Shown: positions 46,932 to 62,121 of the stretch, piece by piece
How the letters are laid out: each line of letters begins with the position of its first letter
Numbering within the stretch: the stretch's first letter is position 1
Assembly (NCBI GenBank): GCA_963765205.1
Contig: CAVXVB010000002.1
Location: forward strand, 150,635-214,634
Direction: 5' to 3'
Origin: an uncultured Verrucomicrobiae bacterium
GTDB lineage: Bacteria > Verrucomicrobiota > Verrucomicrobiia > Opitutales > JABDGR01
DNA length: 64,000 nt
Translations under genes and position numbers: made by a program
The notes under the pieces: model-generated
The model's input: the letters and a program-made list of their open reading frames with translations, nothing else
The model's database searches: none
What the model was told of the DNA's origin: nothing

Positions 46932-46963
46932 TTCCACCCACCTTGGCCTCCATCCATGCGACC

Positions 46964-49291
46964 ATGAGCGACTCCCGCGAAAGCGTTTTCTTCCTCGGCC
47001 TCGGCGGCATGGGCATGGCGCCCCTGGCCCTCTATCTCGACGAGGCGGGCTGCCGTGTGCGTGGCTGCGACGACCATTGGCGCGAACCGGTCCGCCGCCT
47101 GCTCGAGCAACGTGGCATCGCCGCCATTGCGTGCGAGGAATTGCCTTCGGATATTTCGCGGGTGGTTTATTCCAGCGCCATCGCAACCGGGCATCCGCTC
47201 TTGTGTGCGGCACGTATCCGCGGCCTGGGTATCTTGCGCCGTGGTGAAATGCTGGCCGAAATGGTGCGCGGACGCCGGCTCATTGCCGTGGTTGGCAGCC
47301 ACGGGAAGACGACCACCACCGCGCTGCTCATCCACGCCCTGCGGGCCGCCGGCCACGATTTCGGCTACCTGCTTGGCGCGCTCTTCGCCGACCCCGCCAC
47401 GCCGCCCGCCCGCCACGCCACCGCGCCCTGGGTCGCCGCCGAAGTGGATGAAAGCGACGGCACCATTGACCATTTTGCGCCCGAAATCACCGTGGCGGTG
47501 AATTTCGATTGGGATCATGCCGACCGCTACCGCACCGAGGCCGAACTTGAGGCGACTTTCATCAATCTTTTTCGCCGCACGCGCCAACTCGTGCTTTTGC
47601 CGCAATGGGATGCACGTCTGCGCCGCTTGGCCGAAACGGCCGGCACGCCCTTCCGCACGTTCGGGCCGGAAGGGGATTTTTCTGTCCGAGCCAGTGGTGA
47701 CGATGGCGCGCGCCAGCGCCTGGCCTTGAATGGCGCCTTTGTGAAGTCAGTGGTCGAGGTTCCGCTAGGTGGTGAGTTCAACGCCGCAAACGCCGCCGCC
47801 GCCCTCGCCGCCGCGCACACGGCGTTTGGAAGCATTGCGGAGGAGCCGTTTGGCGGCTATCGCGGCGTGTCCCGCCGCCAGGACGTGCTGTTGCGCCGCC
47901 CAGGGTTGTCCGTTTACGCCGATTACGCGCACCATCCGACGGAAATTGCCGCACTGCTGCGCAATCTGCGCGCGCATTCGCCGGGCCGCCTGCTGGTCGT
48001 GTTTCAGCCGCACCGCTATACGCGCACGAAACAATTCGCGGCGGATTTCGCCGCGGCGCTGGGCGCGGGCGACCACGTGTTCCTCCTGCCGGTTTACGCC
48101 GCCAGCGAGCCGCCGCTGCCGGAAGGCGACTCCGCCGCCATCCTCGCCGCCGCACCGACCGGCGAGAATAAATTTTCCCTGCACGATTCTTTCAACGATT
48201 TGGAACGCACCCTTCGGGCTGCGCTTGCGAAACATTCTGAAGAGATCACGCTGGCCTTGGTGGGCGCGGGGGACATTGACGAGTTCGCCACGGCATTCGT
48301 CCGCCGATTGGAAGATAAATCCTCTCCGCCGCCCGCTTCCGTGATTAATCAAAAGAGCACCCTCGATTGGTTTGACACACTATGTGCGCGCCTAAGTCCA
48401 GACACTCTGGCGCAGCGCGATGAGCCGCTCGCCGACAAAACCACGCTTGGGGTGGGTGGCCCGGCCCATTATTATGCCGAGCCGGCCACGATCGAAGACC
48501 TCGCGCAGTTGCTTCGTGCCGCCCGGGCCGCAGGCGTGCAGGTGTTTTGCCTGGGGCGTGGCTCAAATTTAATTGTCACTGACACCGGTTATCCCGGTCT
48601 GGTGCTGCGGCTGAATCATGCGGAATGGAAGAAACTTCGTTTGGAAAGCCCGGATCGGATTTTCGCGGGCGCCGGCGTGCGGCTCAAGGAATTATGCGGC
48701 TTTGCGGCGCGGCATGGCCTCGCGGGGTTGGAATTTCTCGAAGGCATTCCCGGTTCGGTCGGCGGGGCGCTGCGGATGAACGCCGGCGCGATGGGGGGGT
48801 GGATTTTTGACCTCATTGCCGAGGTGGAATATGTCACTGCGGCCGGTGAAACACGGCGGGCTCCGCGCCATGAATTTCACCCTGGCTACCGCCAATGCCC
48901 CGAATTGCTCGACGCGGTCGCCATTGGCGCGGTGTTTCACGCGCCTGGGGGTGGCCCGCCGGAGGAGATCCGCCGCCGGATGGAGACTTTTGCGCTCAAG
49001 CGCAAAGCCACCCAGCCGCGGGAGCGCAGCGCGGGCTGCCTGTTCAAAAATCCTCCCGGCGGCCACGCGGGCAAGCTGATTGACGAAATGGGCCTCAAGG
49101 GCCGGCGCGTCGGCGCCATCGAAGTCTCGATCGTTCACGCGAATTTCATTATCAATCATGGCGGCGGCACGGCGGCGGAAGCATTGGCGCTGGCGCGCCA
49201 GGTTCGGGGCGAAGTGTTTGCGCGCAGTGGCATCAAGCTCGAACCCGAGGTGCTGCTACTCGGGGCCAATTGGGAGGAAGTGCTGCAATGA
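46964..49291 (+). CDS. murC/murB: MurC-MurB fusion protein
   Basis: N-part GLGGMGM, GSHGKTTT, EVDESDG, DYAHHPTE, FQPHRY; C-part GRGSN, GIPGSVGG, MNAG, SAGCLFKNP, HANF; one uninterrupted ORF. Confidence 0.95.
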   Translation: MSDSRESVFFLGLGGMGMAPLALYLDEAGCRVRGCDDHWREPVRRLLEQRGIAAIACEELPSDISRVVYSSAIATGHPLLCAARIRGLGILRRGEMLAEMVRGRRLIAVVGSHGKTTTTALLIHALRAAGHDFGYLLGALFADPATPPARHATAPWVAAEVDESDGTIDHFAPEITVAVNFDWDHADRYRTEAELEATFINLFRRTRQLVLLPQWDARLRRLAETAGTPFRTFGPEGDFSVRASGDDGARQRLALNGAFVKSVVEVPLGGEFNAANAAAALAAAHTAFGSIAEEPFGGYRGVSRRQDVLLRRPGLSVYADYAHHPTEIAALLRNLRAHSPGRLLVVFQPHRYTRTKQFAADFAAALGAGDHVFLLPVYAASEPPLPEGDSAAILAAAPTGENKFSLHDSFNDLERTLRAALAKHSEEITLALVGAGDIDEFATAFVRRLEDKSSPPPASVINQKSTLDWFDTLCARLSPDTLAQRDEPLADKTTLGVGGPAHYYAEPATIEDLAQLLRAARAAGVQVFCLGRGSNLIVTDTGYPGLVLRLNHAEWKKLRLESPDRIFAGAGVRLKELCGFAARHGLAGLEFLEGIPGSVGGALRMNAGAMGGWIFDLIAEVEYVTAAGETRRAPRHEFHPGYRQCPELLDAVAIGAVFHAPGGGPPEEIRRRMETFALKRKATQPRERSAGCLFKNPPGGHAGKLIDEMGLKGRRVGAIEVSIVHANFIINHGGGTAAEALALARQVRGEVFARSGIKLEPEVLLLGANWEEVLQ

Positions 49292-52440: not shown

Positions 52441-53748
52441 ATGAACACCTCCGCCCATACGTCCTCCAGCGCCGACCAAATCCTGTCCGGCCAGATGCCG
52501 GAGGACGGCGTGCGCGTGAAAATCGTCGGCGTTGGCGGCGCGGGCACCAACGCGGTGGACCGGCTGCAGCTCGACCATGTCGGCCTGCGGCTGCGCATCG
52601 CCGCGCTGAACACTGACGCGCAGGCGCTCAATTCCTCGCCCGCGCCGGAAAAATTGCTCATTGGACGCGGGCTGACGCGCGGTGTGGGCACGGGCGGCGA
52701 GGCGGACGTCGGCCGCGCGGCCGCCGAGGCCGACCGCGAGCGCATCACCAAAATTTTCCAGGGCATGGACCTGGTGTTTATCGTGGCCGGGCTGGGCGGG
52801 GGCACGGGCAGCGGCGCGGCGCCGGTCATCGCGCAAATCGCCACGCAGGCGGGCGCGCTGGTCGTCGCCTTCGTCATGCTGCCGTTCACCAACGAGGGCG
52901 GCCGCCGCCGCCAACTCGCCGACCAGGCCCTCGCCGAATTGCGCCAGACCTGCGACGCCGTCATCCCGCTGCCCAACGATCTGCTCCTGCAACACCTGCC
53001 CGACGACGCCACGGTGCTCGACGCCTTCGGCCAGGCCGACGCGTGGATTGGCCGCGCCATCCGCTCCATCTCCGCGATTTTGTTCCACACCGGCCTCATC
53101 AACCTCGACTTCGCCACGCTGCGGCGCACCTTCACGCCCCGCGGCGGCAAGACGCTCTTTGGCCTCGGCCACGGTTCCGGCGAGAATTGCGTGGCCGAGG
53201 CGTTGCACGACCTCATGCTCTGCCCGCTGCTGCACACGCCCGAGTTGTCGCGCCGGGCGGACCGGCTGCTGGTTAACATCGTCGGCGGCCCCGAGCTGAG
53301 CCTGGCGCGCGTCAATGAAATCGTTGCCGTCATCGCCGAAAAATTCGGCAGCCGCGAGCAGACTGTTCTCGGTGCGGTGATTGACGAGCGCTTGATCGGG
53401 AAACTGGAAATTTGCGTCATCGGCATGACGGAAGTGCGGGCCAAAGGCTCGTCGCTGGCCTCGCTGCGCACCGCCCCACCCGGCCTGCGGGCCGACGCGC
53501 CCGCCCCGGCCCCGAACCAGGCCCCGGCGATTTTCGCCCGGCCCCCGGCCGCCGCCGTGGCCGCGCCGCCCGTGCATGAATCCAAGCTGCGCGGGCACAA
53601 GGACGGCGGCGCGCCGCAAAACGAATTTCACTTTGTCGGCGAGGACGAGCAGCGAGGCTATTTCGACCAGACCGAGCGCAACTTCTTTGAAGGCGAAGAC
53701 CTCGACGTGCCCGCCTATTTGCGGCGGGGGATTAAAATTCAGTTGTGA
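52441..53748 (+). CDS. ftsZ: Cell division protein FtsZ (divergent T7 loop)
   Basis: VGVGGAGTN, NTD, GLGGGTGSG, PFTNEG; C-terminal DLDVPAYLRR. Confidence 0.96.
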   Translation: MNTSAHTSSSADQILSGQMPEDGVRVKIVGVGGAGTNAVDRLQLDHVGLRLRIAALNTDAQALNSSPAPEKLLIGRGLTRGVGTGGEADVGRAAAEADRERITKIFQGMDLVFIVAGLGGGTGSGAAPVIAQIATQAGALVVAFVMLPFTNEGGRRRQLADQALAELRQTCDAVIPLPNDLLLQHLPDDATVLDAFGQADAWIGRAIRSISAILFHTGLINLDFATLRRTFTPRGGKTLFGLGHGSGENCVAEALHDLMLCPLLHTPELSRRADRLLVNIVGGPELSLARVNEIVAVIAEKFGSREQTVLGAVIDERLIGKLEICVIGMTEVRAKGSSLASLRTAPPGLRADAPAPAPNQAPAIFARPPAAAVAAPPVHESKLRGHKDGGAPQNEFHFVGEDEQRGYFDQTERNFFEGEDLDVPAYLRRGIKIQL

Positions 53749-53751
53749 GGC

Positions 53752-54801
53752 TCACTTCACCAGCAGCGTCGCCAGCCCCAAGAACAGGCCCATGCTGGCC
53801 ACGTTGGTCGCGGTGGTGAGGAAAATGCTTGAGGCGGTGACGGGGTCGGCGCCGAATCGCTTAAGGATCAGGGGCACAACCGCGCCGCAGACACCGCTGA
53901 TCACGCAACTGCCGACCATGGAGAGGAACACCACGAGGCCGAGCATGGGGGCGGTGGACAAATGATGGACGGAGGCGACCCCATACATGGCCAGCCCCGC
54001 GACCAACCCGATGAGCGTGCCATTCATCAAACCGAGCAGGCCTTCTTTGATGACCTGCGCCTTGATCTTGCCTGTTTTCAGATCACCCAGGATCATTCCG
54101 CGCAGGGTGATCGCCAGCGCCTGGCTGCCGGCGTTGCCCGACTGGTCGGCCAGCACTGGCAGAAAAATGGTGAGAATCAGCAGCCGGTCAATGGTGCCTT
54201 GGAACAAACCGACCACGGCGGCGGCGGCAAAGGAGGTAAGCAGGTTGACCTGCAGCCAGGGCAGCCGGAGCCGCAGGCTTTTTAACCAGGGCGTGGAGGA
54301 ACGGACTTCCTTTTCAACGCCCACCATCGCGCCGGGCTGGGCGGTCAACTCGAACGATCTTTTCTGTTCCGCGACGACGCGCTCGTAGAGATTCTTCGTT
54401 TCCTGATGCAGCAGGCGCACTTCGAGCAGGTTATGAACCCGGAGCAACACCTCGGCCAGGTCGAACGGTTTGCTGACGAAATCTTTCGCCCCGGCTTTCA
54501 GCGCGCGCAGTTTATGCTCCGGTTGGGCCGTCAGCACGATGACCGGCAGATAGCTGTCCTTTTCGATTTCCTTCAACTGTTCCATTACCTGGAATCCGTC
54601 CAGGCTGGGCATCTGCAAATCGAGCAGGATCAAGTCATAATGGTGTTGGCGGTGCAGCGCGCCGACTTGGCCCGAGTCCATTGTGGTCGTGATGGCATCA
54701 TAGCCGGCCCCGCGCAGCATCTGCTCGAGCAGTGCGACATTGGCCTGTTGATCGTCAACAATCAGGATTTTGCCGTGCAGGATGTCCGCTGAACTGATCA
54801 T
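53752..54801 (-). CDS. Response-regulator receiver domain fused to an MgtE-type membrane domain
   Basis: IVDD...LLDLQMP...LTA...SKP receiver; helical linker; RLPWL, PVLADQSGNAGSQALA, ADPVTASSIFLTT MgtE motifs; no CBS domains. Confidence 0.88.
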   Translation of the reverse strand: MISSADILHGKILIVDDQQANVALLEQMLRGAGYDAITTTMDSGQVGALHRQHHYDLILLDLQMPSLDGFQVMEQLKEIEKDSYLPVIVLTAQPEHKLRALKAGAKDFVSKPFDLAEVLLRVHNLLEVRLLHQETKNLYERVVAEQKRSFELTAQPGAMVGVEKEVRSSTPWLKSLRLRLPWLQVNLLTSFAAAAVVGLFQGTIDRLLILTIFLPVLADQSGNAGSQALAITLRGMILGDLKTGKIKAQVIKEGLLGLMNGTLIGLVAGLAMYGVASVHHLSTAPMLGLVVFLSMVGSCVISGVCGAVVPLILKRFGADPVTASSIFLTTATNVASMGLFLGLATLLVK

Positions 54802-54816
54802 GGCCTGGGTCCTGTG

Positions 54817-57366
54817 TTAGACAATCGAGCCATGGGTTTTTTCGGCAAATTCCAGGGCGTCGTTCAAGGTTTCACTGAATTCCCGGACCTTAATGGGTTT
54901 GGTGAGGTAGCGAAAGAATCCGACCTCGAGGCCCACTTCAATGTCGCGCAACATCGCGTTGGCGCTGATGGCCACGACAGGGATGTGGGCCGTCGCCTGG
55001 TCTTCGCGCAGGATTTTCAAGGCGTCAATCCCGCTGATGCCGGGCAGGTTGATGTCCATCAGGATCACGTCGGGCTGGCTGGCGCGGGCCAGCTCGATGC
55101 CGAGGGTGCCGTTCACCGCCGTCAACAGCTTGATGTCTGCGCGCTGCGCGATGAGTTGCTCGACGAGCATCATGTTCGCCGGGTTGTCCTCGATATAGAG
55201 CACGGTGTGCATGCGCGCGTCAATCAGGCCGTGCGGTTGCGCGCCAGTGGCTGGCTCGGTCCTTTCCAGGACCAGGGTGGGCGCCGCGGTCGAGAGCAGT
55301 TCAATCCAGAACACGCTGCCCGCTCCGACGGTGCTTTCCACGCCGAGGACGCCATCCATCAGTTCGGCCAGTTGTTTGGTGACCACCAAGCCGATGCCGG
55401 TGCCCGCGACGCCGCCGGCCTCCTGGCCGAGGCGGTTGAACGGCTGGAAGAGCTGCGCAAGTTTTTCCGGCGCCAGGCCCGCGCCGGTGTCCCGGACGCT
55501 GATGCGCGTTCGATCCGGGACGATCGTGGCGCAGTCCACGACCACCGTGCCTTTCTCCTTATTGTATTTGATCGCGTTGGAGAGCAGGTTGATGACAATT
55601 TGCTTCAAACGCGTGCGGTCGGCCCAGACAAAACTGGGCTGGTCGAACCGGGGAAAAGTCATATGAATCCCGCGCTGTTGCGCCTGCGGCTCCATCATGG
55701 CCTGGCATTCGGACATGACGTCGGTGAGCGACACCGGCTCCAGCGACAGGGAGACTTTGCCGGACTCGATGACCGCGAGGTCCAGGATTTCGTTGATCAG
55801 TTTGAGCAGATGCCAGCCCGCCTGGAGGATCTGGGCGATACGCGCTGTCTGGACGGGCGTGGGCAACGGTGTCGCCGTCTCCATCAATTGCGCGAAGCCG
55901 AGGATTGCATTGAGCGGGCTGCGCAGTTCATGGCTCATGCTCGAGAGGAACCCCGATTTGGCGAGGTTGGCCTTTTCCGCGGTGGACTTGGCGCTCTCCA
56001 GCTCGACGTTGGATTCCTGCAAGGCCTGCTCGAAGCGCTTGCGCTCCGTCACGTCGCGTGCGGCGGCGAACACGCCTTGCAGTCGCCGGTCGCGGTCATA
56101 GAAGGTGGTCGCGTTGTAAGACACCACGGTTTCCTTGTCATCGCGTGCGCGCGCGGTGAGTTCGTAGTCGGTGACCTTTTTCTCGTTTAGCACCAGCTTG
56201 ATGGCGGCTTCGGCCCGCTCCGGGTCGGTGAAATAGTTTTTGAACGGCGCGCCGATCAATTCGTCGCGCGTGCAGCCGGTGAGCGCCTCCATCTGCTTGT
56301 TGACGTCGGTGATGATGCCGAGGGGGTCGGTGGTCATCAGCGCGTCAATGTTGGATTCGATGAGGGAGCGGGTGTAGAACTGCTGGTCGCGCAAGCGCTG
56401 ATCCAGCTTCTTCTGCTCTTCTTCGACCTGTTTGCGCGCGGTGTTATCCGTGCCAATCAACAGGTAGCCGATGATGCCGCCCTCATCTCCGCGCAACGCC
56501 GTGACCGACACGACGGCGGGAAAGCGGCTGCCGTCCTTGCGGATGTAGGTCAATTCGTAGATGTCCTCGATCCCGCGCGAGGCCTTGAAAACCAGCGCCT
56601 CGAAGCCCGGCATGATGGTGGTCGCCAGTTCGACGCTCAACGTTTTGGCCCGCGCAATGAGTTCCTGCGAATCGGAAATATCGGCCGGCGTGATTTTGTT
56701 CAGCACTTCCGCCGCGGTGTAGCCGAGCATGCGTTCGGCGCCGACATTGAACAACTGGATGACGCCCTTTTCATCCGTGGCGATGCTCGAGAAATTGGCG
56801 CTGTTGAAGATGGCGCTCTGCAAGGCCCCGGCCTCGAGCAGCGCCTCTTCCGCGCGCTTGCGGGCGCTGTTGTCGGTGCCGATCAGCAAATAGCCGATGA
56901 TGCCGCCCCGCTCGTCGCGCAGCGCCGTGACCGACACGACGGCGGGAAAGCGGCTGCCGTCCTTGCGGATGTAGGTCAATTCGTAAATGTCCTCGATGCC
57001 GCGCGAGGCTTTAAACACCAGAGCTTCGAAGCCTGGTGCAATCGTGGTCCCCAGTTCAAGGCTCAAGGCGGCGGCGCGCGCGATGACTTCCTGCGGGTCG
57101 GAAATGTCCGCGGGCGTGATTTTGTTCATCACGTCTGCGGCCGTGTAGCCCAGCATGCGCTCGGCGCCGACATTGAAAATCTGAATAACGCCCTTTTCAT
57201 CGGTGGCGATGCTCGAGAAATTGGCGCTGTTGAGAATTGCGTTCTGCAAGGCTCCCGTCTTTAGCACCGCCTCCTGGCGGCGGACTTCCGTGATGACCTC
57301 CACCGTGCCGTCGGCCAGATGTTCGACTTCCGGGGTAAATAATACGGGAATTTTCGTGCGGTTCAT
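54817..57366 (-). CDS. Cytoplasmic hybrid histidine kinase (3 PAS + HisKA + HATPase + receiver)
   Basis: MSHELRSPL H-box, NLLSNAIKY, DTGAG, GTGIGL, YIED...LMDINLP; no TM segments. Confidence 0.95.
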   Translation of the reverse strand: MNRTKIPVLFTPEVEHLADGTVEVITEVRRQEAVLKTGALQNAILNSANFSSIATDEKGVIQIFNVGAERMLGYTAADVMNKITPADISDPQEVIARAAALSLELGTTIAPGFEALVFKASRGIEDIYELTYIRKDGSRFPAVVSVTALRDERGGIIGYLLIGTDNSARKRAEEALLEAGALQSAIFNSANFSSIATDEKGVIQLFNVGAERMLGYTAAEVLNKITPADISDSQELIARAKTLSVELATTIMPGFEALVFKASRGIEDIYELTYIRKDGSRFPAVVSVTALRGDEGGIIGYLLIGTDNTARKQVEEEQKKLDQRLRDQQFYTRSLIESNIDALMTTDPLGIITDVNKQMEALTGCTRDELIGAPFKNYFTDPERAEAAIKLVLNEKKVTDYELTARARDDKETVVSYNATTFYDRDRRLQGVFAAARDVTERKRFEQALQESNVELESAKSTAEKANLAKSGFLSSMSHELRSPLNAILGFAQLMETATPLPTPVQTARIAQILQAGWHLLKLINEILDLAVIESGKVSLSLEPVSLTDVMSECQAMMEPQAQQRGIHMTFPRFDQPSFVWADRTRLKQIVINLLSNAIKYNKEKGTVVVDCATIVPDRTRISVRDTGAGLAPEKLAQLFQPFNRLGQEAGGVAGTGIGLVVTKQLAELMDGVLGVESTVGAGSVFWIELLSTAAPTLVLERTEPATGAQPHGLIDARMHTVLYIEDNPANMMLVEQLIAQRADIKLLTAVNGTLGIELARASQPDVILMDINLPGISGIDALKILREDQATAHIPVVAISANAMLRDIEVGLEVGFFRYLTKPIKVREFSETLNDALEFAEKTHGSIV
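56420..57260 (-). repeat. Intragenic tandem duplication of a PAS module, period 426 bp
   Basis: Near-identical blocks, e.g. GGCGGGAAAGCGGCTGCCGTCCTTGCGGATGTAGGTCAATTCGTA at 56515 and 56941. Boundaries approximate. Confidence 0.9.
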
Positions 57367-57800
57367 GGTGGATGGTTTTCTACGAGTGGAGCGGTCGGAC
57401 GCAAATTTGGGGCAGGCTGGCAACGGCGAACCGATGTACAACCCGCCCAAGCAAACCGTATTTTACGGCACAGGTTGACAATGCCCGAAAACGCCCGCGC
57501 GGGCTATGGGGTGTAACCCTTCTTAAGCGCAGCTCTGCCGAGGGATTCTCTGCTCGCGGCGGATCCCCTCAGCCGCGAGTCGCGCGATGGTCTGGCCGCC
57601 GGAAAACGCAAGAACGAAGCATCAATTATTACTCGCCAGATCCAGACGCAGTTTCGTAGCGCCGCGGTTCGCTCGAATCGCAAAGAAGCGCTGGCTGAAG
57701 CTCAGTGCTACGATACAAGCAATTTTTCAAAACAAACCACCGTGGCACCCTTTGGAGAAGATGCCATTCATAATCCGCCGGGCGGTCCCGCCACCGTGAT

Positions 57801-59198
57801 TTAGGTCAGGGACAATTTGCCGGTGCTGTCACCGAGCTGGTCATCCGAGGCGCCCACATGGTCGAGCATGGAGAGCCAGAGGTTGTTGATGGGCGCGCCT
57901 GCGGCATCCATGTGGCGGCCGGTCTTGATGGCATTACCGCCGGCTTTGCCAAGCAGGATCAGCGGCAGGTCATCGTGGTTGTGGCGGTTGCCGTCACTGA
58001 TGGCGCCACCGTAGGAGATGAGCGAGTTGTCGAGCAGCGAGCCGTTGCCTTCCTTGATCGAGTCCAGCTTGTCCAGCATATAAACGAACTGCTGCAAGTG
58101 GTAAGCATTGATTTTTTGCAGCAGCGCCATTTTTTCCGGGCTGCCCATGTGGTGGGAGGTGCCGTGGTGCGGAACATTGGCGCCGCCCCAGGGGTAGGAC
58201 TGGTTGCTGCCTTCGTCGGCGAAGGGGAAGGTCACGATACGGGTGAGGTCGGCCTGGAAAGCCAGCACCATCATGTCAATCATCAGTTTGATATGCGTGG
58301 GGTATTCGGTGCTCGAAGTGGAAATGCCCACCTTTTGTTCCAGACTCGAATCGTAGGCCGTCGCGGGCCGCACCGCGCCGGCCGGCAGGGGAGGGGGCGG
58401 TTCGTTGGCGGCACGTTGGAGACGGACTTCAATTTCCCGGACAGAGGTCAAATACTGGTCGAGTTTATCCCGGTCCGTGGCGGTGAGGCCTTTTTGGACG
58501 TTGTTGGCGTCATTAAGGACGAAGTCCAGAATGCTTTTGCTGTCTTTTTCGCGCAAGGCCTTGGCTTCGGGTGTTTCGCCCGGATTGCCGTTGGAGAAAA
58601 GGCGGTCAAAGACGGACTGGGGGTCCACGTCCTTGGCCAGCGGGGTGGTGGGATTGCGCCAGGCGAGATTATGCTCGTAAGCCTTGAGATAGTTGTTGTC
58701 TGTCGCCGCCTTTTTGCCGTCCTCGATCCCGATTTCCAGCGAGGGAAACTTGGTGAAATGGCCGATTTTTTGCGCGGCAATCTGGTCGGCGGAAACGCCG
58801 AGATGCATGGGCACCGGCGGCTTCCACGGATGCACACCTGTCAGGTAAGCGGCATTGCCGCGGGCATGGTCGCCGCCCCCTTCGCCGTAGGCGTTGGCCT
58901 TGTCGCAGACGAGGTTGCTGATGACCAGCATGCGGTCGCGGTAAGCCTTCATGACGCTGAGGGTGGGCGTAAGTTCATAATCCGCGCCCAAGGTGGCGGG
59001 GGTCCAGTTCTGCATGTCAATGCCGTTAGGGACGTAGATCCAGGCCAGGCGCTTGGGGCCCGCGGCGGCCTTGGCGACGGCGGTGTCGGAGATGGCGGCA
59101 AAGGAGCGGCAGGGCAGGAGGGATTCGAGAAAGGGCAGCGCCATGGCGGTGCCCAGCCCACGCAATACTTTCCGACGGCTGATGGTGTGTGTGATCAT
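57801..59198 (-). CDS. DUF1552 (HXXSHH) domain protein
   Basis: ISRRKVLRGLG leader, YVPNG, SADQIAA, VFDRLF, HHGTSHH, GNRHNHDDLP. Confidence 0.92.
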   Translation of the reverse strand: MITHTISRRKVLRGLGTAMALPFLESLLPCRSFAAISDTAVAKAAAGPKRLAWIYVPNGIDMQNWTPATLGADYELTPTLSVMKAYRDRMLVISNLVCDKANAYGEGGGDHARGNAAYLTGVHPWKPPVPMHLGVSADQIAAQKIGHFTKFPSLEIGIEDGKKAATDNNYLKAYEHNLAWRNPTTPLAKDVDPQSVFDRLFSNGNPGETPEAKALREKDSKSILDFVLNDANNVQKGLTATDRDKLDQYLTSVREIEVRLQRAANEPPPPLPAGAVRPATAYDSSLEQKVGISTSSTEYPTHIKLMIDMMVLAFQADLTRIVTFPFADEGSNQSYPWGGANVPHHGTSHHMGSPEKMALLQKINAYHLQQFVYMLDKLDSIKEGNGSLLDNSLISYGGAISDGNRHNHDDLPLILLGKAGGNAIKTGRHMDAAGAPINNLWLSMLDHVGASDDQLGDSTGKLSLT

Positions 59199-62121
59199 GA
59201 TTGGTTGTCTCCGGTTGATGATTTTTCTCCTGGTGGATTGCCGCGTCTTTGAAGGAAGGCATCGCTGTGGACGATGGCATGAATCAACGCGGAAAATTTA
59301 TCACCGTTCTTGTGCATGGTCGAGACGATATCGTTGGTGGTGCGGACGTCAAACGGCTCGACATTGCGCCCGAGGGCGTAGGTCAGCATTTTGGTGGCCA
59401 GGCAGCGGCAAAACTGATCTTTGGAGGCCAGCAGGGTTTGTTCCAATTCCTTGGCGCCGTTAAAAGTGGTTCCATCGGGCAGGTGGCCGGAGGCGTCAAT
59501 GGGATCATTATTGATGTCCTTGGTGCGCCAGGCGCCCGTGACATCAAAGTTTTCGAGGCTGAAGCCAATGGCATCCATGCGCTCATGGCAGGAGGCGCAC
59601 ACGGGATTGGTCCGATGTTGCTCCATTTGCTGGCGCAGCGTGCCCTTGAGTTGTTTTTCGTCGTCGAGGGCGGGAACGTTAGGGGGGGGCGGGGGGGGGC
59701 GGAGTCCAGTAGGTTCTCCAGCACCCATTTGCCGCGCTGCACCGGGGAGGTGCGCGTGTTGTAGGACGTGATGGCGAGGATGCTGGCCTGGGTGATCAGG
59801 CCGCCGCGCGGGGAGTTTTTCGGGAAGGTAACCCGTTGGAACGCATCGGTGAAATTGCCCTCCAGGCCGTAGAGCTTGGCCAGTGGCGCGTTGACAAAGC
59901 TGTAATCGGCATCAATGAAATCAAGCACGCTGCGGTCTTCATCCTTGATGCTGGAGAAAAACATCTGTGTTTCCGTCAGCATCGCCGTCTTTAGTTCAGG
60001 GGTGAAATTGGGAAATTTATCGGAGTCGGGATTGACGTCCTCCACTTTGCGCAATTGCAGCCACTGACCGGCAAAATTGTTCACGAGGGCCTCGGCCTTC
60101 GGATCCTTGAGCATGCGCGTGACCTGCTCGTCAAGATGGGCATGCAACTGGCCTTTGGCGGCCAGGGCGAACAACTCGTCGTCGGGCATGGTGCTCCACA
60201 GGAAATAGGACAGACGGGAGGCCAGCTCGTAGTCGTTGAGGGTGTGAATGTTATTCGGCTCGCCCGGCTGCGGGTCTTGCTCAATGCGGAACAGGAAATT
60301 GGGGTTGAGCAGCACCGCTTGCAGCGCAACAGTCACGCTTTTTTCAAAAGGACGGTCGGGGGTGTCCACGGAAGTAAAGAGGCCCATGAATTTGTTCACC
60401 TCGTCATCGGTGGCGGGCCGGCGGTAGGCGCGGGTGACAAAGTTGCGGATGATTTTTTCCGCCGCCTGGGTCCTGGTCAAAGTATTGGAGGGGTGCGCGA
60501 CCATCACGCTCTGGTAGCTCTTGGGCATGCGCTCGGGCATCTCGGTGGCGTTGGTGAACTGGGGGCCTTCCACTTTGAGGCTAAGGACGCCGAGGATGGT
60601 CGCGCCGGGGACGACGGGCGTGGGCCCCGGGGGGGGGCCTCCACGACGGCCAGCACCCGCGCCGGCAAAATTTCGACCGGCGGTGCCCCGGGCACCGGCT
60701 GGAGCAGCCGATGAGGCGGCGGCGGGCGCAGCAGCCGGAGCGGCACTGGCCGCAGCATCGCTGCCACCGGCAGAGGCGGCGGGATCGGCAGCGGCAATGG
60801 CACCGGCAGGAGCGGAGGACGAGATGGAAGCAGGCGCGGCGGAGGGTGTAGGAGCCGTTTGGTCAGCGGCCGGACTGGCCGCACTGGGGCTGGGATTAGC
60901 CGCAGCAGTTGCAGCCGCCGTCACGGCGGCATTGTAATCATCAAGTGTGGCACCATTGCGGAAAGCCAAAGTTATGCTATGCGGGCCAGCCGTGACGTGA
61001 ATTTTCGGCGAGGCAACTTCCTGCGGGGCGTTCGCTACGGCCGAGACCTTCAGGGAATACCGGTCGGGATTCTGATCTGCTCCTTGGATGTTGGCATCAA
61101 CCACCGGTATATTGCCATCAAGGTAGAAGAGAACATTAGCGGTAGGCCCGGCGTTGCCACGGCCTCCGCCGTTGCCGCCACCCGCGTAGCCCTTTAGACT
61201 AAAAATGTAATCGCCCTCCACGGGAAAATTGTAATTCACATAAATGTAGCCGGATCGTTGGAAAACGCGGCCGAGTACCACGGGTGGGCCACCTCGGCCG
61301 CCGCGCCCGGCACCGGCATTCTGACCGGCATTCTGGCTGGCCGCAGCCAACGCCGCCGCTGCGGGCACGGGCGGAGCCGCCGGGGCCGGATTGGTTTTGG
61401 GAATGTCCCCTTCGAGGGCTGTGGCGTCAAATACTTTGCTCGGGGGCGGCACCGTCGGGTCGGTGAACACGGCGGCATCCAAGGATACCTCGGCGGCTTT
61501 GATATATTTCTCGAACAGCACGGGTGCAATGTTCAGCGCGTCACCATTGTTGTCGAAACCATCGCCGGCGTCATCCGCCGGGAAGCTGTCCGCGGGATGC
61601 AGGTCAATGGCGAGCAAATCGCGGACGGTATTGTCGTATTCGACGCGGTTGAGGCGGTGGATGGTGACGCGGCCCGGGTCAATGGGTCCGCTGGCATAAT
61701 AGCTGGTTGTGTATTTATCCATCCAGGCGACGACCGTGTGATACTCGTCTTCCGTGGGCCGCTTCTCTTCCTTGGGCGGCATTTTGCGGGTGTTAAGCAT
61801 CTCCATCGCCTTCGCGATGGTGGGGACGCCTTTGGCCAGCGAGGCATCATCGTGGAACGTATCCAAGCGCACATCCCCTTCGGTGTCATCGGGGCCATGG
61901 CATTCGTAACAATGCGCGGCCAGAAAGGGCTGAACAGTCTGCTGGAATTCCGCAAAAGTGGGGATCGCGGGTTGCGGCGGCGGGGTCTGCGCCAGCTTGG
62001 GATTCGAGCACGCCAGCAGCACCAAGGCGGTAAGACTCGAGGCAATGCTGATCCGTTGGAAGGGCCGTTGGGAAAAGCCGGCCGGTTCCTTTGCTTGGTG
62101 GGGTTTACCAAGGTGAAACAT
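59195..62121 (-). CDS. DUF1592/DUF1588/DUF1595-type PVC cytochrome c protein (homopolymer frameshift at 59682-59699)
   Basis: CYECH and CASCH heme motifs, RLNRVEYDNTVRDL, RAYRRP, ELASRLSYFLW, TSPVQRGKWV, TYALGR. Confidence 0.9.

Follow-up and report, generated by a model that had tools for sequence, protein, structure and literature searches.

The question raised by this locus is whether a two-component system can end in an ion channel. On the reverse strand of the window (the whole stretch of 64,000 nucleotides of contig CAVXVB010000002.1, from an uncultured Verrucomicrobiae bacterium of the order Opitutales, that we analysed), a gene for a hybrid histidine kinase is followed by a gene for a protein in which a receiver domain is joined through a helix to the transmembrane (TM) domain of MgtE, here called REC-MgtE. 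Characterised two-component outputs are transcription factors, enzymes and protein-binding domains, and we know of no characterised one that is a transport pore. An earlier examination of the letters alone (the sequence-only reading) had proposed that the pair forms a phosphorylation-gated membrane channel with its kinase. Our analysis leads to the same proposal, that REC-MgtE is a phosphorylation-gated MgtE-type cation channel, and we judge the chances that it is right or wrong to be evenly balanced.

The layout of the locus is as that reading described it, with two open reading frames (ORFs) separated by a 15-bp gap and the unit ending at an in-frame ATG of the kinase gene (Table 1). The kinase ORF extends further, to an in-frame TTG at 57450 (54817-57450, 877 aa), and kinase residues (PAS units, HisKA, His507 and Asp799) are given in the 877-aa numbering. 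The receiver of REC-MgtE is intact, since D16, D17, D61, T91, F108 and K111 can all be read from their codons, and among the best 120 relatives listed D16, D17, D61 and F108 are kept in 120, T91 in 119 and K111 in 118. In the AlphaFold2 model it has the (beta-alpha)5 fold, with strands at residues 12-15, 37-40, 57-61, 87-91 and 107-110 alternating with helices, and Foldseek aligns it with solved receivers at template-modelling scores (TM-score, target) of 0.86-0.90. The remainder is the five-TM MgtE domain that had been claimed to follow the receiver: Pfam PF01769 matches residues 214-342 (84.2 bits, cut-off 27.6), phmmer finds the MgtE TM-domain chains 4u9n, 4u9l and 8h5e, and the fold superposes on 4u9l_B (Foldseek TM-score (target) 0.88, root-mean-square deviation 2.7, 185 columns, 26% identity), the plug helix and five TM helices of MgtE being present both among the AlphaFold2 helices and in the Foldseek alignment. 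Pfam finds no MgtE_N or CBS domain in REC-MgtE.

Table 1. Features of the REC-MgtE and kinase genes (window positions; kinase residues in the 877-aa numbering)
Feature	Residues	Position	Strand	Basis
REC-MgtE gene, 349 aa, stop codon included		53752-54801	-	ORF list, Pfam
Receiver domain	12-122	54436-54768	-	Pfam Response_reg, 95.5 bits (cut-off 30.2)
Receiver acidic pair, D16	16	54754-54756	-	codon
Receiver acidic pair, D17	17	54751-54753	-	codon
Receiver phospho-acceptor D61 (in LLDLQMP)	61	54619-54621	-	codon
Receiver T91	91	54529-54531	-	codon
Receiver F108	108	54478-54480	-	codon
Receiver K111	111	54469-54471	-	codon
Linker helix, continuous with receiver helix 5	123-153	54343-54435	-	AlphaFold2 helix 115-153
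Connector 'TAQPGAMVGVEKE...' and plug helix	154-187	54241-54342	-	homology to CBS-MgtE from residue 146
MgtE transmembrane domain, TM1-TM5	188-347	53761-54240	-	Pfam, phmmer, Foldseek
D219 (TM2), equivalent to G325 of Thermus thermophilus MgtE	219	54145-54147	-	codon
N333 (TM5), equivalent to D432 of T. thermophilus MgtE	333	53803-53805	-	codon
Intergenic gap, kinase stop to REC-MgtE start, 15 bp		54802-54816	-	read from DNA
Soluble hybrid histidine kinase gene, 849 aa from ATG		54817-57366	-	ORF list, Pfam
PAS unit 1	~62-202	56845-57267	-	boundaries from blastp, not Pfam
PAS unit 2, tandem duplicate of unit 1	~204-344	56419-56841	-	Pfam PAS stretch, blastp
PAS unit 3	361-477	56020-56370	-	Pfam PAS_9/PAS best stretch 361-469; NCBIfam sensory_box 361-477
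HisKA dimerisation/phospho-acceptor domain	497-564	55759-55962	-	Pfam; His507 codon 55930-55932
HATPase_c catalytic domain	611-718	55297-55620	-	Pfam
Kinase C-terminal receiver (Response_reg)	750-862	54865-55203	-	Pfam; Asp799 codon 55054-55056

The fusion is not a singleton. All 120 of the best relatives listed carry Response_reg and MgtE (lengths 348-380 aa, mostly 349 or 377-380), and a second search adds 72 further clusters with both domains as well as P0122; with 120 relatives in each list the count is a lower bound, and there are at least 193 such protein clusters at 90% identity. Selection on the gene is purifying and not relaxed, with a ratio of nonsynonymous to synonymous substitution rates (dN/dS) of 0.18-0.21 overall and 0.06-0.25 across receiver, linker and TM domain taken separately (receiver 0.20-0.25, TM domain 0.17-0.19). 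The junction itself (~54340-54400) is crossed without differences by two Logan contigs, X1 (988 nt, 53931-54895) and X3 (192 nt, 54259-54450); X1 possibly comes from the source sample, and X3 belongs to the same study, which makes their independent support weak, and the orthologs support the fusion more strongly. That the fusion is an assembly or annotation artefact or a decaying gene is thus practically ruled out by the spread of the family (at least 193 clusters from many assemblies, 15 full-length loci and five phylum-level labels), the intact frame, the dN/dS of about 0.2 and the contigs across the junction, and the possible origin of X1 in the window's source run is the single point that could be raised for it.

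The 15 loci with a full-length relative come from species-representative genomes of Opitutales, Gallionella, Sideroxydans, Sterolibacterium, Rhodocyclales, Moraxellaceae, Rhodospirillaceae, Geobacteraceae, Desulfuromonadaceae and Myxococcales, and the phylum-level labels are Verrucomicrobiota, Pseudomonadota, Thermodesulfobacteriota and Myxococcota plus one cluster labelled Bacteroidota. Clustering at 50% identity leaves very few representatives (P0121, P0122), which makes the family a tight clade spread over several phyla, and dS between the REC-MgtE gene and its Gallionella ortholog is only 0.71. Closer to home its presence is patchy: the fusion was found in three of six other genomes of the genus and one of three other genomes of the family, and other families of the order have only canonical MgtE genes, 35-46% identical. 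The hosts that carry names tend to be taxa of iron cycling and of acidic or peaty fresh waters (Gallionella, Sideroxydans, Ferrovum, Geobacteraceae, a mine drainage metagenome), which may reflect sampling bias. Candidatus Gallionella acididurans has two tandem REC-MgtE genes after the kinase; the first (L010:1966-2973, 335 aa) departs from the family at its C-terminal end and may be frameshifted or truncated, and the second (L010:3144-4277) has a serine at the TM2 pore position.

Automatic annotation has named members of the family 'response regulator', 'magnesium transporter' or 'CheY-like chemotaxis protein/cation transporter-like permease'. The sequence-only reading knew of no characterised example, and our search of full-text literature, which did not extend to InterPro or to older response-regulator censuses, likewise turned up no paper describing a receiver-MgtE fusion. 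Two literature matches were set aside: PMC5529423 concerns ATP modulation of MgtE, and PMC7005997 merely names mgtE as a transporter gene.

How the fusion arose can be approached through its nearest unfused relatives, which are CBS+MgtE proteins of Acidobacteriota, with 63-66% identity between residue 146 and the C-terminus. A TM-domain tree from a quick maximum-likelihood run (IQ-TREE; including 40 of the 120 listed relatives, taken as every third, plus P0121 and P0122, and leaving out the CBS proteins P0174, P0200 and P0224, in which the anchor motif was not found) places 57 fusion proteins in one clade, with a Shimodaira-Hasegawa-like approximate likelihood ratio (SH-aLRT) support of 99, and makes that clade sister to the Acidobacteriota CBS-MgtE proteins (SH-aLRT 88). 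The claim that a receiver stands in place of the MgtE sensor agrees well with the identity to these CBS+MgtE relatives from residue 146 onward; as judged by sequence comparison, the receiver replaced the CBS sensor of a canonical MgtE clade, and the plug helix and five TM helices were kept.

The other half of the protein also has close relatives. Paralogs encoded in the same operons of related loci are 60-74% identical to REC-MgtE over residues 1-152, and Response_reg was found in all ten neighbouring paralogs scanned. Their outputs are a class III cyclase (two), an HD-GYP-type HD_5 domain (three), GGDEF (one), a second receiver (two), DUF1003 (one) and none (one), and by sequence the N-terminal 150 residues belong to a promiscuous receiver+linker module. 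The DUF1003 protein (L009:3394-4347, 88.7 bits) carries the module on a membrane domain, which gives this type of operon another output embedded in the membrane. A resemblance of the linker to that of receiver-cyclase proteins, and a domain swap at this helix, had been suggested before, and both are supported here. The short linker 'LYERVVAEQKRS' matches the receiver-cyclase linker up to 'AEQK.S', same-operon paralogs carry 'LY..VVAEQK.S' and then diverge, and beyond that point the cyclase proteins continue with 'ERLLLNVLP' and the fusion with 'FELTAQPGAMVGV', as in CBS-MgtE; sequence comparison places the junction near residues 145-148.

Receiver and MgtE were also joined a second time. P0122 and P0271 (328 and 332 aa) have a very short linker, with the receiver joined right before 'MVGV'. 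The P0122 receiver is 69% and 76% identical to those of P0001 and P0028 of the main family, and its TM domain shares 76-79% identity with an MgtE_N+CBS+MgtE clade (P0338, P0342, P0343 and others) and 46-49% with the main fusion family. This second lineage keeps the canonical glycine/aspartate (G/D) pore pair discussed below. These blastp identities, rather than the tree (in which P0122 is a long branch), indicate that the second fusion is independent of the main family, and that such a fusion occurred twice at almost the same position is an argument for useful control of the MgtE pore by a receiver.

Between receiver and pore the AlphaFold2 monomer (mean predicted local distance difference test score (pLDDT) 81.1, from a 50-sequence alignment) has a single continuous helix, 115-153, that runs from receiver helix 5 through the linker, followed by helices at 172-199 (plug/TM1), 208-238, 243-278, 284-315 and 320-347. 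The linker comes in two main lengths. What distinguishes the 349-aa from the 377-aa form is a single block of exactly 28 residues, or four heptads, and among the best 120 relatives listed the lengths are 377 (57 proteins), 349 (35), 380 (13), 378 (6), 350 (4), 348 (3) and 376 (2). The long linker is found in those basal clade members that come from loci, where the length is known (L005, L007, L012-L015).

A homodimer model, which the sequence-only reading had suggested making, reached an interface score from predicted aligned errors (ipSAE) of 0.61 (runs 0.61, 0.59 and 0.65), with 0.00 for the best of three controls; as solved MgtE dimers exist, the TM part of this model may come from the model's memory, and for the receiver/coiled-coil part no solved structure shows a counterpart joined to MgtE. 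Of proteins solved as one-chain pairs 20 of 30 also reach this mark, against 1 of 23 among those solved as single chains. Between runs at least 94% of contacts agree, with a partner pLDDT of at least 79. The modelled interface comprises the receiver alpha4-beta5-alpha5 face (94-120), the linker, the connector/plug and TM1/TM2, and takes in 218-220 and a TM5 stripe at 329, 333 and 337. The linker contacts fall at 124-125, 127-128, 131-132, 134-135, 138-139, 141-142, 145-146 and 148-150, a spacing of 3-4 over residues 124-150 that is typical of a parallel coiled coil, as predicted by the model.

The kinase is the triple-PAS hybrid kinase that had been described. Pfam finds three PAS stretches, HisKA, HATPase_c and Response_reg, and the features of a hybrid kinase (HisKA with His507, HATPase_c and a C-terminal receiver with Asp799) are all present in the domains and codons. 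It is also soluble, as claimed, in that no 19-residue window has a Kyte-Doolittle hydropathy of 1.6 or more. PAS units 1 and 2 align by blastp over 141 aa with 85% identity. The only match of the PAS region among PDB sequences is a weak one (3lyx_A, E 3.6e-4), which gives no clue to the ligand. Several contigs of run X5 join across 433-537 nt (~56382-56611 to 56856-57149), about one PAS unit, and this could mean relatives with one PAS unit fewer or a repeat collapsed in assembly; the same run holds many short pieces, 90-95% alike, that are probably from other organisms' kinases.

A check of synteny finds that 9 of the 15 full-length loci have an orthologous kinase (54-88% identity) upstream of the fusion and on its strand. 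The two genes adjoin each other in six (L001, L002, L006, L010, L011 and L012) and are separated by one or two paralogous regulator genes in three (L004, L007 and L009). The L003 sequence ends 655 nt upstream of the fusion, no kinase ortholog was found in the flanks of L005 and L008, and the three Myxococcales loci have a kinase, 31-39% identical, downstream. The four loci of relatives within the family to which the window belongs (L107, on the same contig as L001, and L108-L110) all have the kinase upstream. ftsZ, which adjoins the gene pair in the window, is beside it in none of these four, and G008 has further receiver paralogs downstream. Given its patchy presence in genus and family and the lack of an ftsZ neighbour in relatives, the kinase and fusion unit looks mobile, as far as gene content can tell. 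The system is often multi-output in relatives and is reduced in the window to the kinase and the candidate channel. Elsewhere in the host genome the closest receiver paralog is only 41% identical to that of REC-MgtE, so the kinase has one obvious partner there.

We propose, then, that together the two genes would make up a two-component unit whose output is not transcription. In it the soluble PAS kinase would sense a cytoplasmic signal and phosphorylate REC-MgtE at Asp61, either directly from His507 or via an unlinked Hpt protein. REC-MgtE would be a parallel homodimer in which the receivers pair via their alpha4-beta5-alpha5 faces and helix 5 runs on as a two-stranded coiled coil, which would lead via the connector into the pair of plug helices; these would lie where an MgtE-type pore, built by TM2 and TM5 of both subunits, opens to the cytoplasm. 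Phosphorylation would repack the receiver dimer and the coiled coil would shift or rotate, as in Rec-coiled-coil-GGDEF cyclases; in one of these, DgcR, the coiled-coil linker changes its heptad register on pseudo-phosphorylation (PMC8041772). The plug helices would then move and the pore open or close, so that the output would be cation flux. The data show the domain make-up, the conservation, the synteny, the origin through replacement of the sensor and a linker indel that preserves heptads; phosphotransfer, gating and conduction are steps that we infer. The ion is uncertain: Mg2+ or some other divalent cation may still pass, or the selectivity of the pore may have changed. The more ambitious form of the proposal we regard as possible but doubtful; it would make REC-MgtE the first response regulator with an ion-channel output, turning a cytoplasmic PAS signal directly into cation flux and, in relatives, working in parallel to cAMP/cGMP and c-di-GMP enzymes on the same receiver module, and would have the move of a carboxylate from TM5 to TM2 retune the filter to a cation other than Mg2+.

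Several observations weigh against a phosphorylation-gated channel. The connector between coiled coil and plug, residues 151-170, is modelled at a pLDDT of 50-57, so that the mechanical coupling is weakest exactly there. The full-length MgtE equivalog TIGR00400 scores 84.4 bits against a cut-off of 232.75 and matches at profile positions 281-447 only. The hybrid kinase has no Pfam match to Hpt at E<=0.01, and none of five Hpt matches elsewhere in the genome is in this contig region, so direct transfer to Asp61 is assumed. A further point concerns the pore, where the canonical aspartate of T. thermophilus MgtE (TtMgtE), D432, aligns with Asn333 (TtMgtE numbering was verified against Q304, E307, E311 and P321 as named in PMC4241985). 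According to that paper, Asp432 is the sole widely conserved acidic pore residue and holds hydrated Mg2+ at the M1 site, which is also lined by the Pro321 and Leu324 carbonyls, and neither D432A nor D432N transports Mg2+ (PMC4241985). Mg2+ conduction therefore cannot be assumed for REC-MgtE. The sequence-only reading had noted neither this substitution nor the retained plug helix, the frequent multi-output character of the system or the lack of Hpt in the kinase.

The substitution has a possible counterpart in TM2, the neighbouring pore helix, which bears an aspartate at the same height. As Leu324 lines the M1 site, Asp219, the equivalent of G325, adjoins a known M1-lining position, and the pore carboxylate may have moved within the M1 site from TM5 to TM2. 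The family is not uniform here. Among the best 120 relatives listed, the (TM2, TM5) pairs are D/N in 71, G/D in 21, G/N in 16, D/D in 4, A/N in 3, D/S in 2, S/D in 2 and Y/N in 1; the TM5 position is N in 91, D in 27 and S in 2, and 20 of the 120 have a carboxylate at neither position. By these sequences the TM2 aspartate is not a universal compensation for the lost TM5 aspartate. On the tree G/D is basal, as in CBS-MgtE, D/N arose once, and G/N and A/N lie inside the D/N group. Compensatory covariation between D219/N333 and G/D was considered and dropped, in view of the one transition from G/D to D/N, the later losses of D to G or A and the 20 members without an acid; what looks like a single event is not replicated covariation and not statistical evidence, and the D219/N333 arrangement is a structural observation only.

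The main rival to a gated channel is that the MgtE domain is a non-conducting membrane module, a dimeric anchor or scaffold whose receiver is a tethered phosphate sink or regulates a membrane partner. The canonical pore aspartate is lost, and D432N is inactive in TtMgtE (PMC4241985); the 20 members without a carboxylate at either position and the presence of the same receiver module on a DUF1003 membrane domain point the same way. Where a hybrid kinase has several receivers, some of them commonly serve as sinks. An anchor would need no polar pore-lining motifs, yet P215, Q220, G225, Q227, S324 and T330 are invariant among 50 sequences, TM2 is the most conserved segment of all (14 of 31 positions invariant) and the TM domain has the low dN/dS given above. 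The plug helix and connector, M159, V160 and G161 of which are invariant in the same 50 sequences, are retained and conserved, and the independent second fusion has the canonical G/D pore. On balance we think a non-conducting module unlikely, if less so than any of the alternatives that follow.

The signal might also run the other way, with the MgtE domain sensing Mg2+, another cation or the membrane state, tuning phosphorylation or dephosphorylation of the receiver and so feeding the PAS-kinase network. Allosteric coupling between the cytosolic and TM parts of canonical MgtE works both ways, and the kinase's own receiver and, in relatives, other response regulators could compete for phosphate. 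The receiver+linker is N-terminal in all nine scanned paralogs that have a second domain, however (seven enzymatic or membrane domains and two receivers), the receiver took the place of MgtE's regulatory sensor and not of an effector, and nothing points to an ion site in receiver or linker. We consider this direction of signalling quite improbable.

The Mg2+ transport genes of the host suggest a further possibility, a constitutive housekeeping Mg2+ channel with a receiver that is vestigial or merely structural, in a genome without CorA and canonical MgtE. In the host genome (4.02 Mb, 12 contigs, 92% complete) no MgtE domain other than that of the fusion, no CorA and no NIPA were found, and in the related Opitutales genome G001 only the fusion was found and no CorA. 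The host has an MgtA-type P-type ATPase, however (C7:109971-112664, 1142 bits, cut-off 610.75), its only recognised Mg2+ uptake candidate besides the fusion; three CNNM-domain matches are also present, one of them broken by a TGA stop. The gene is as patchy within genus and family as described above, the phospho-site residues of the receiver are conserved and its dN/dS is low, and the pore aspartate is an asparagine. CorA is present in four of five other host genomes and canonical MgtE in three of five, which makes the fusion an accessory, conditional system rather than a housekeeping channel. We had considered the notion that REC-MgtE is the sole Mg2+ channel and hence a housekeeping one, and rejected it as the main interpretation because MgtA is present and the gene is patchy within the genus; a housekeeping role with an idle receiver strikes us as very unlikely indeed.

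The gene pair lies between ftsZ and a 465-aa gene. ftsZ, on the forward strand, ends at 53748, 3 bp from the REC-MgtE stop at 53752, and this spacing of convergent genes leaves no room for a terminator between them. No terminator-like site was found between kinase and REC-MgtE or between ftsZ and the REC-MgtE stop (there are three such sites where shuffles lead one to expect 5.1), a scan for sigma-70-like promoters gave 0 sites, and Rfam had no match in 53000-58500 at E<=0.1, hence no M-box riboswitch. The 465-aa gene upstream of the kinase is on the reverse strand and ends at 57801; with a 912-aa neighbour it makes up two large reverse-strand ORFs (57801-62121) that resemble DUF1552/DUF1592 pairs of the sort common in Planctomycetes and Verrucomicrobia. 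To judge its translation by eye, a 782-aa ORF (46943-49291) that precedes ddl, ftsQ, ftsA and ftsZ resembles a MurC-MurB fusion.

If the proposed phosphorylation-gated channel is real, a receiver-gated MgtE adds direct control of ion flux to the outputs of two-component systems, and provides an MgtE channel whose gate is set from outside by phosphorylation, or by beryllofluoride (BeF3-), and not by Mg2+ and ATP. The family would offer several natural experiments, in a fusion that arose twice independently, in linkers four heptads apart in length, in the pore variants G/D, D/N, D/D and G/N, and in sibling cyclase, HD-GYP, GGDEF and DUF1003 proteins on the same receiver+linker. Together they would allow direct tests, within a single system, of how movement of a coiled coil by a receiver dimer can drive different machines. 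Should the pore turn out not to conduct, what is left is an odd receiver anchored in the membrane. The domains and the principle of transduction are already known, and their combination has been catalogued only under automatic names.

Four comparisons with known proteins place REC-MgtE. The CBS-MgtE proteins of Acidobacteriota/Thermoanaerobaculia (L016-L021; P0124) share with it the connector 'AQ.G.MVGV.KEER..TPW' and the plug helix; they have a CBS pair and the canonical G/D pore, whereas the fusion has a receiver and, in the window's subclade, D/N. The receiver-class III cyclase paralogs (L002:3563-4663 and L007:7160-8296) are 70-71% identical to it over residues 1-152, linker included, and share its operon and upstream kinase, but have a Guanylate_cyc domain (215-225 bits) in place of the MgtE connector; no characterisation of them was found in the literature searched.

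T. thermophilus MgtE (2yvx/2zy9 for the full length, 4u9l/4u9n for the TM domain) has in common with REC-MgtE the plug helix and five-helix TM domain and the TM2 'PV...GN.G.Q' and TM5 'DP' motifs; for REC-MgtE, too, a homodimer with TM2 and TM5 at its interface is predicted by the dimer model. TtMgtE differs in having MgtE_N and a CBS pair where REC-MgtE has receiver and coiled coil, in the second proline of its TM5 'DP.....P......D', which is an isoleucine in REC-MgtE, and in the D432/G325 pair, which is Asn333/Asp219 in REC-MgtE; the two proteins are only 26% identical. A parallel to the proposed transduction is with the Rec-coiled-coil-GGDEF proteins (DgcR of Leptospira biflexa; WspR, 3i5a/3bre), in which an N-terminal receiver extends its last helix into a dimeric stalk that feeds a dimeric output, as modelled here. 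Foldseek aligns WspR with 146-155 columns of the REC-MgtE model, beyond the receiver alone, the heptad-multiple linker indel would fit the register-based mechanism given for DgcR in PMC8041772, and REC-GGDEF paralogs with the same receiver module occur in related operons. Their output is a soluble enzyme and that of REC-MgtE would be an MgtE TM domain, which, unlike theirs, is reached from the coiled coil through a connector of ~20 residues and a plug helix.

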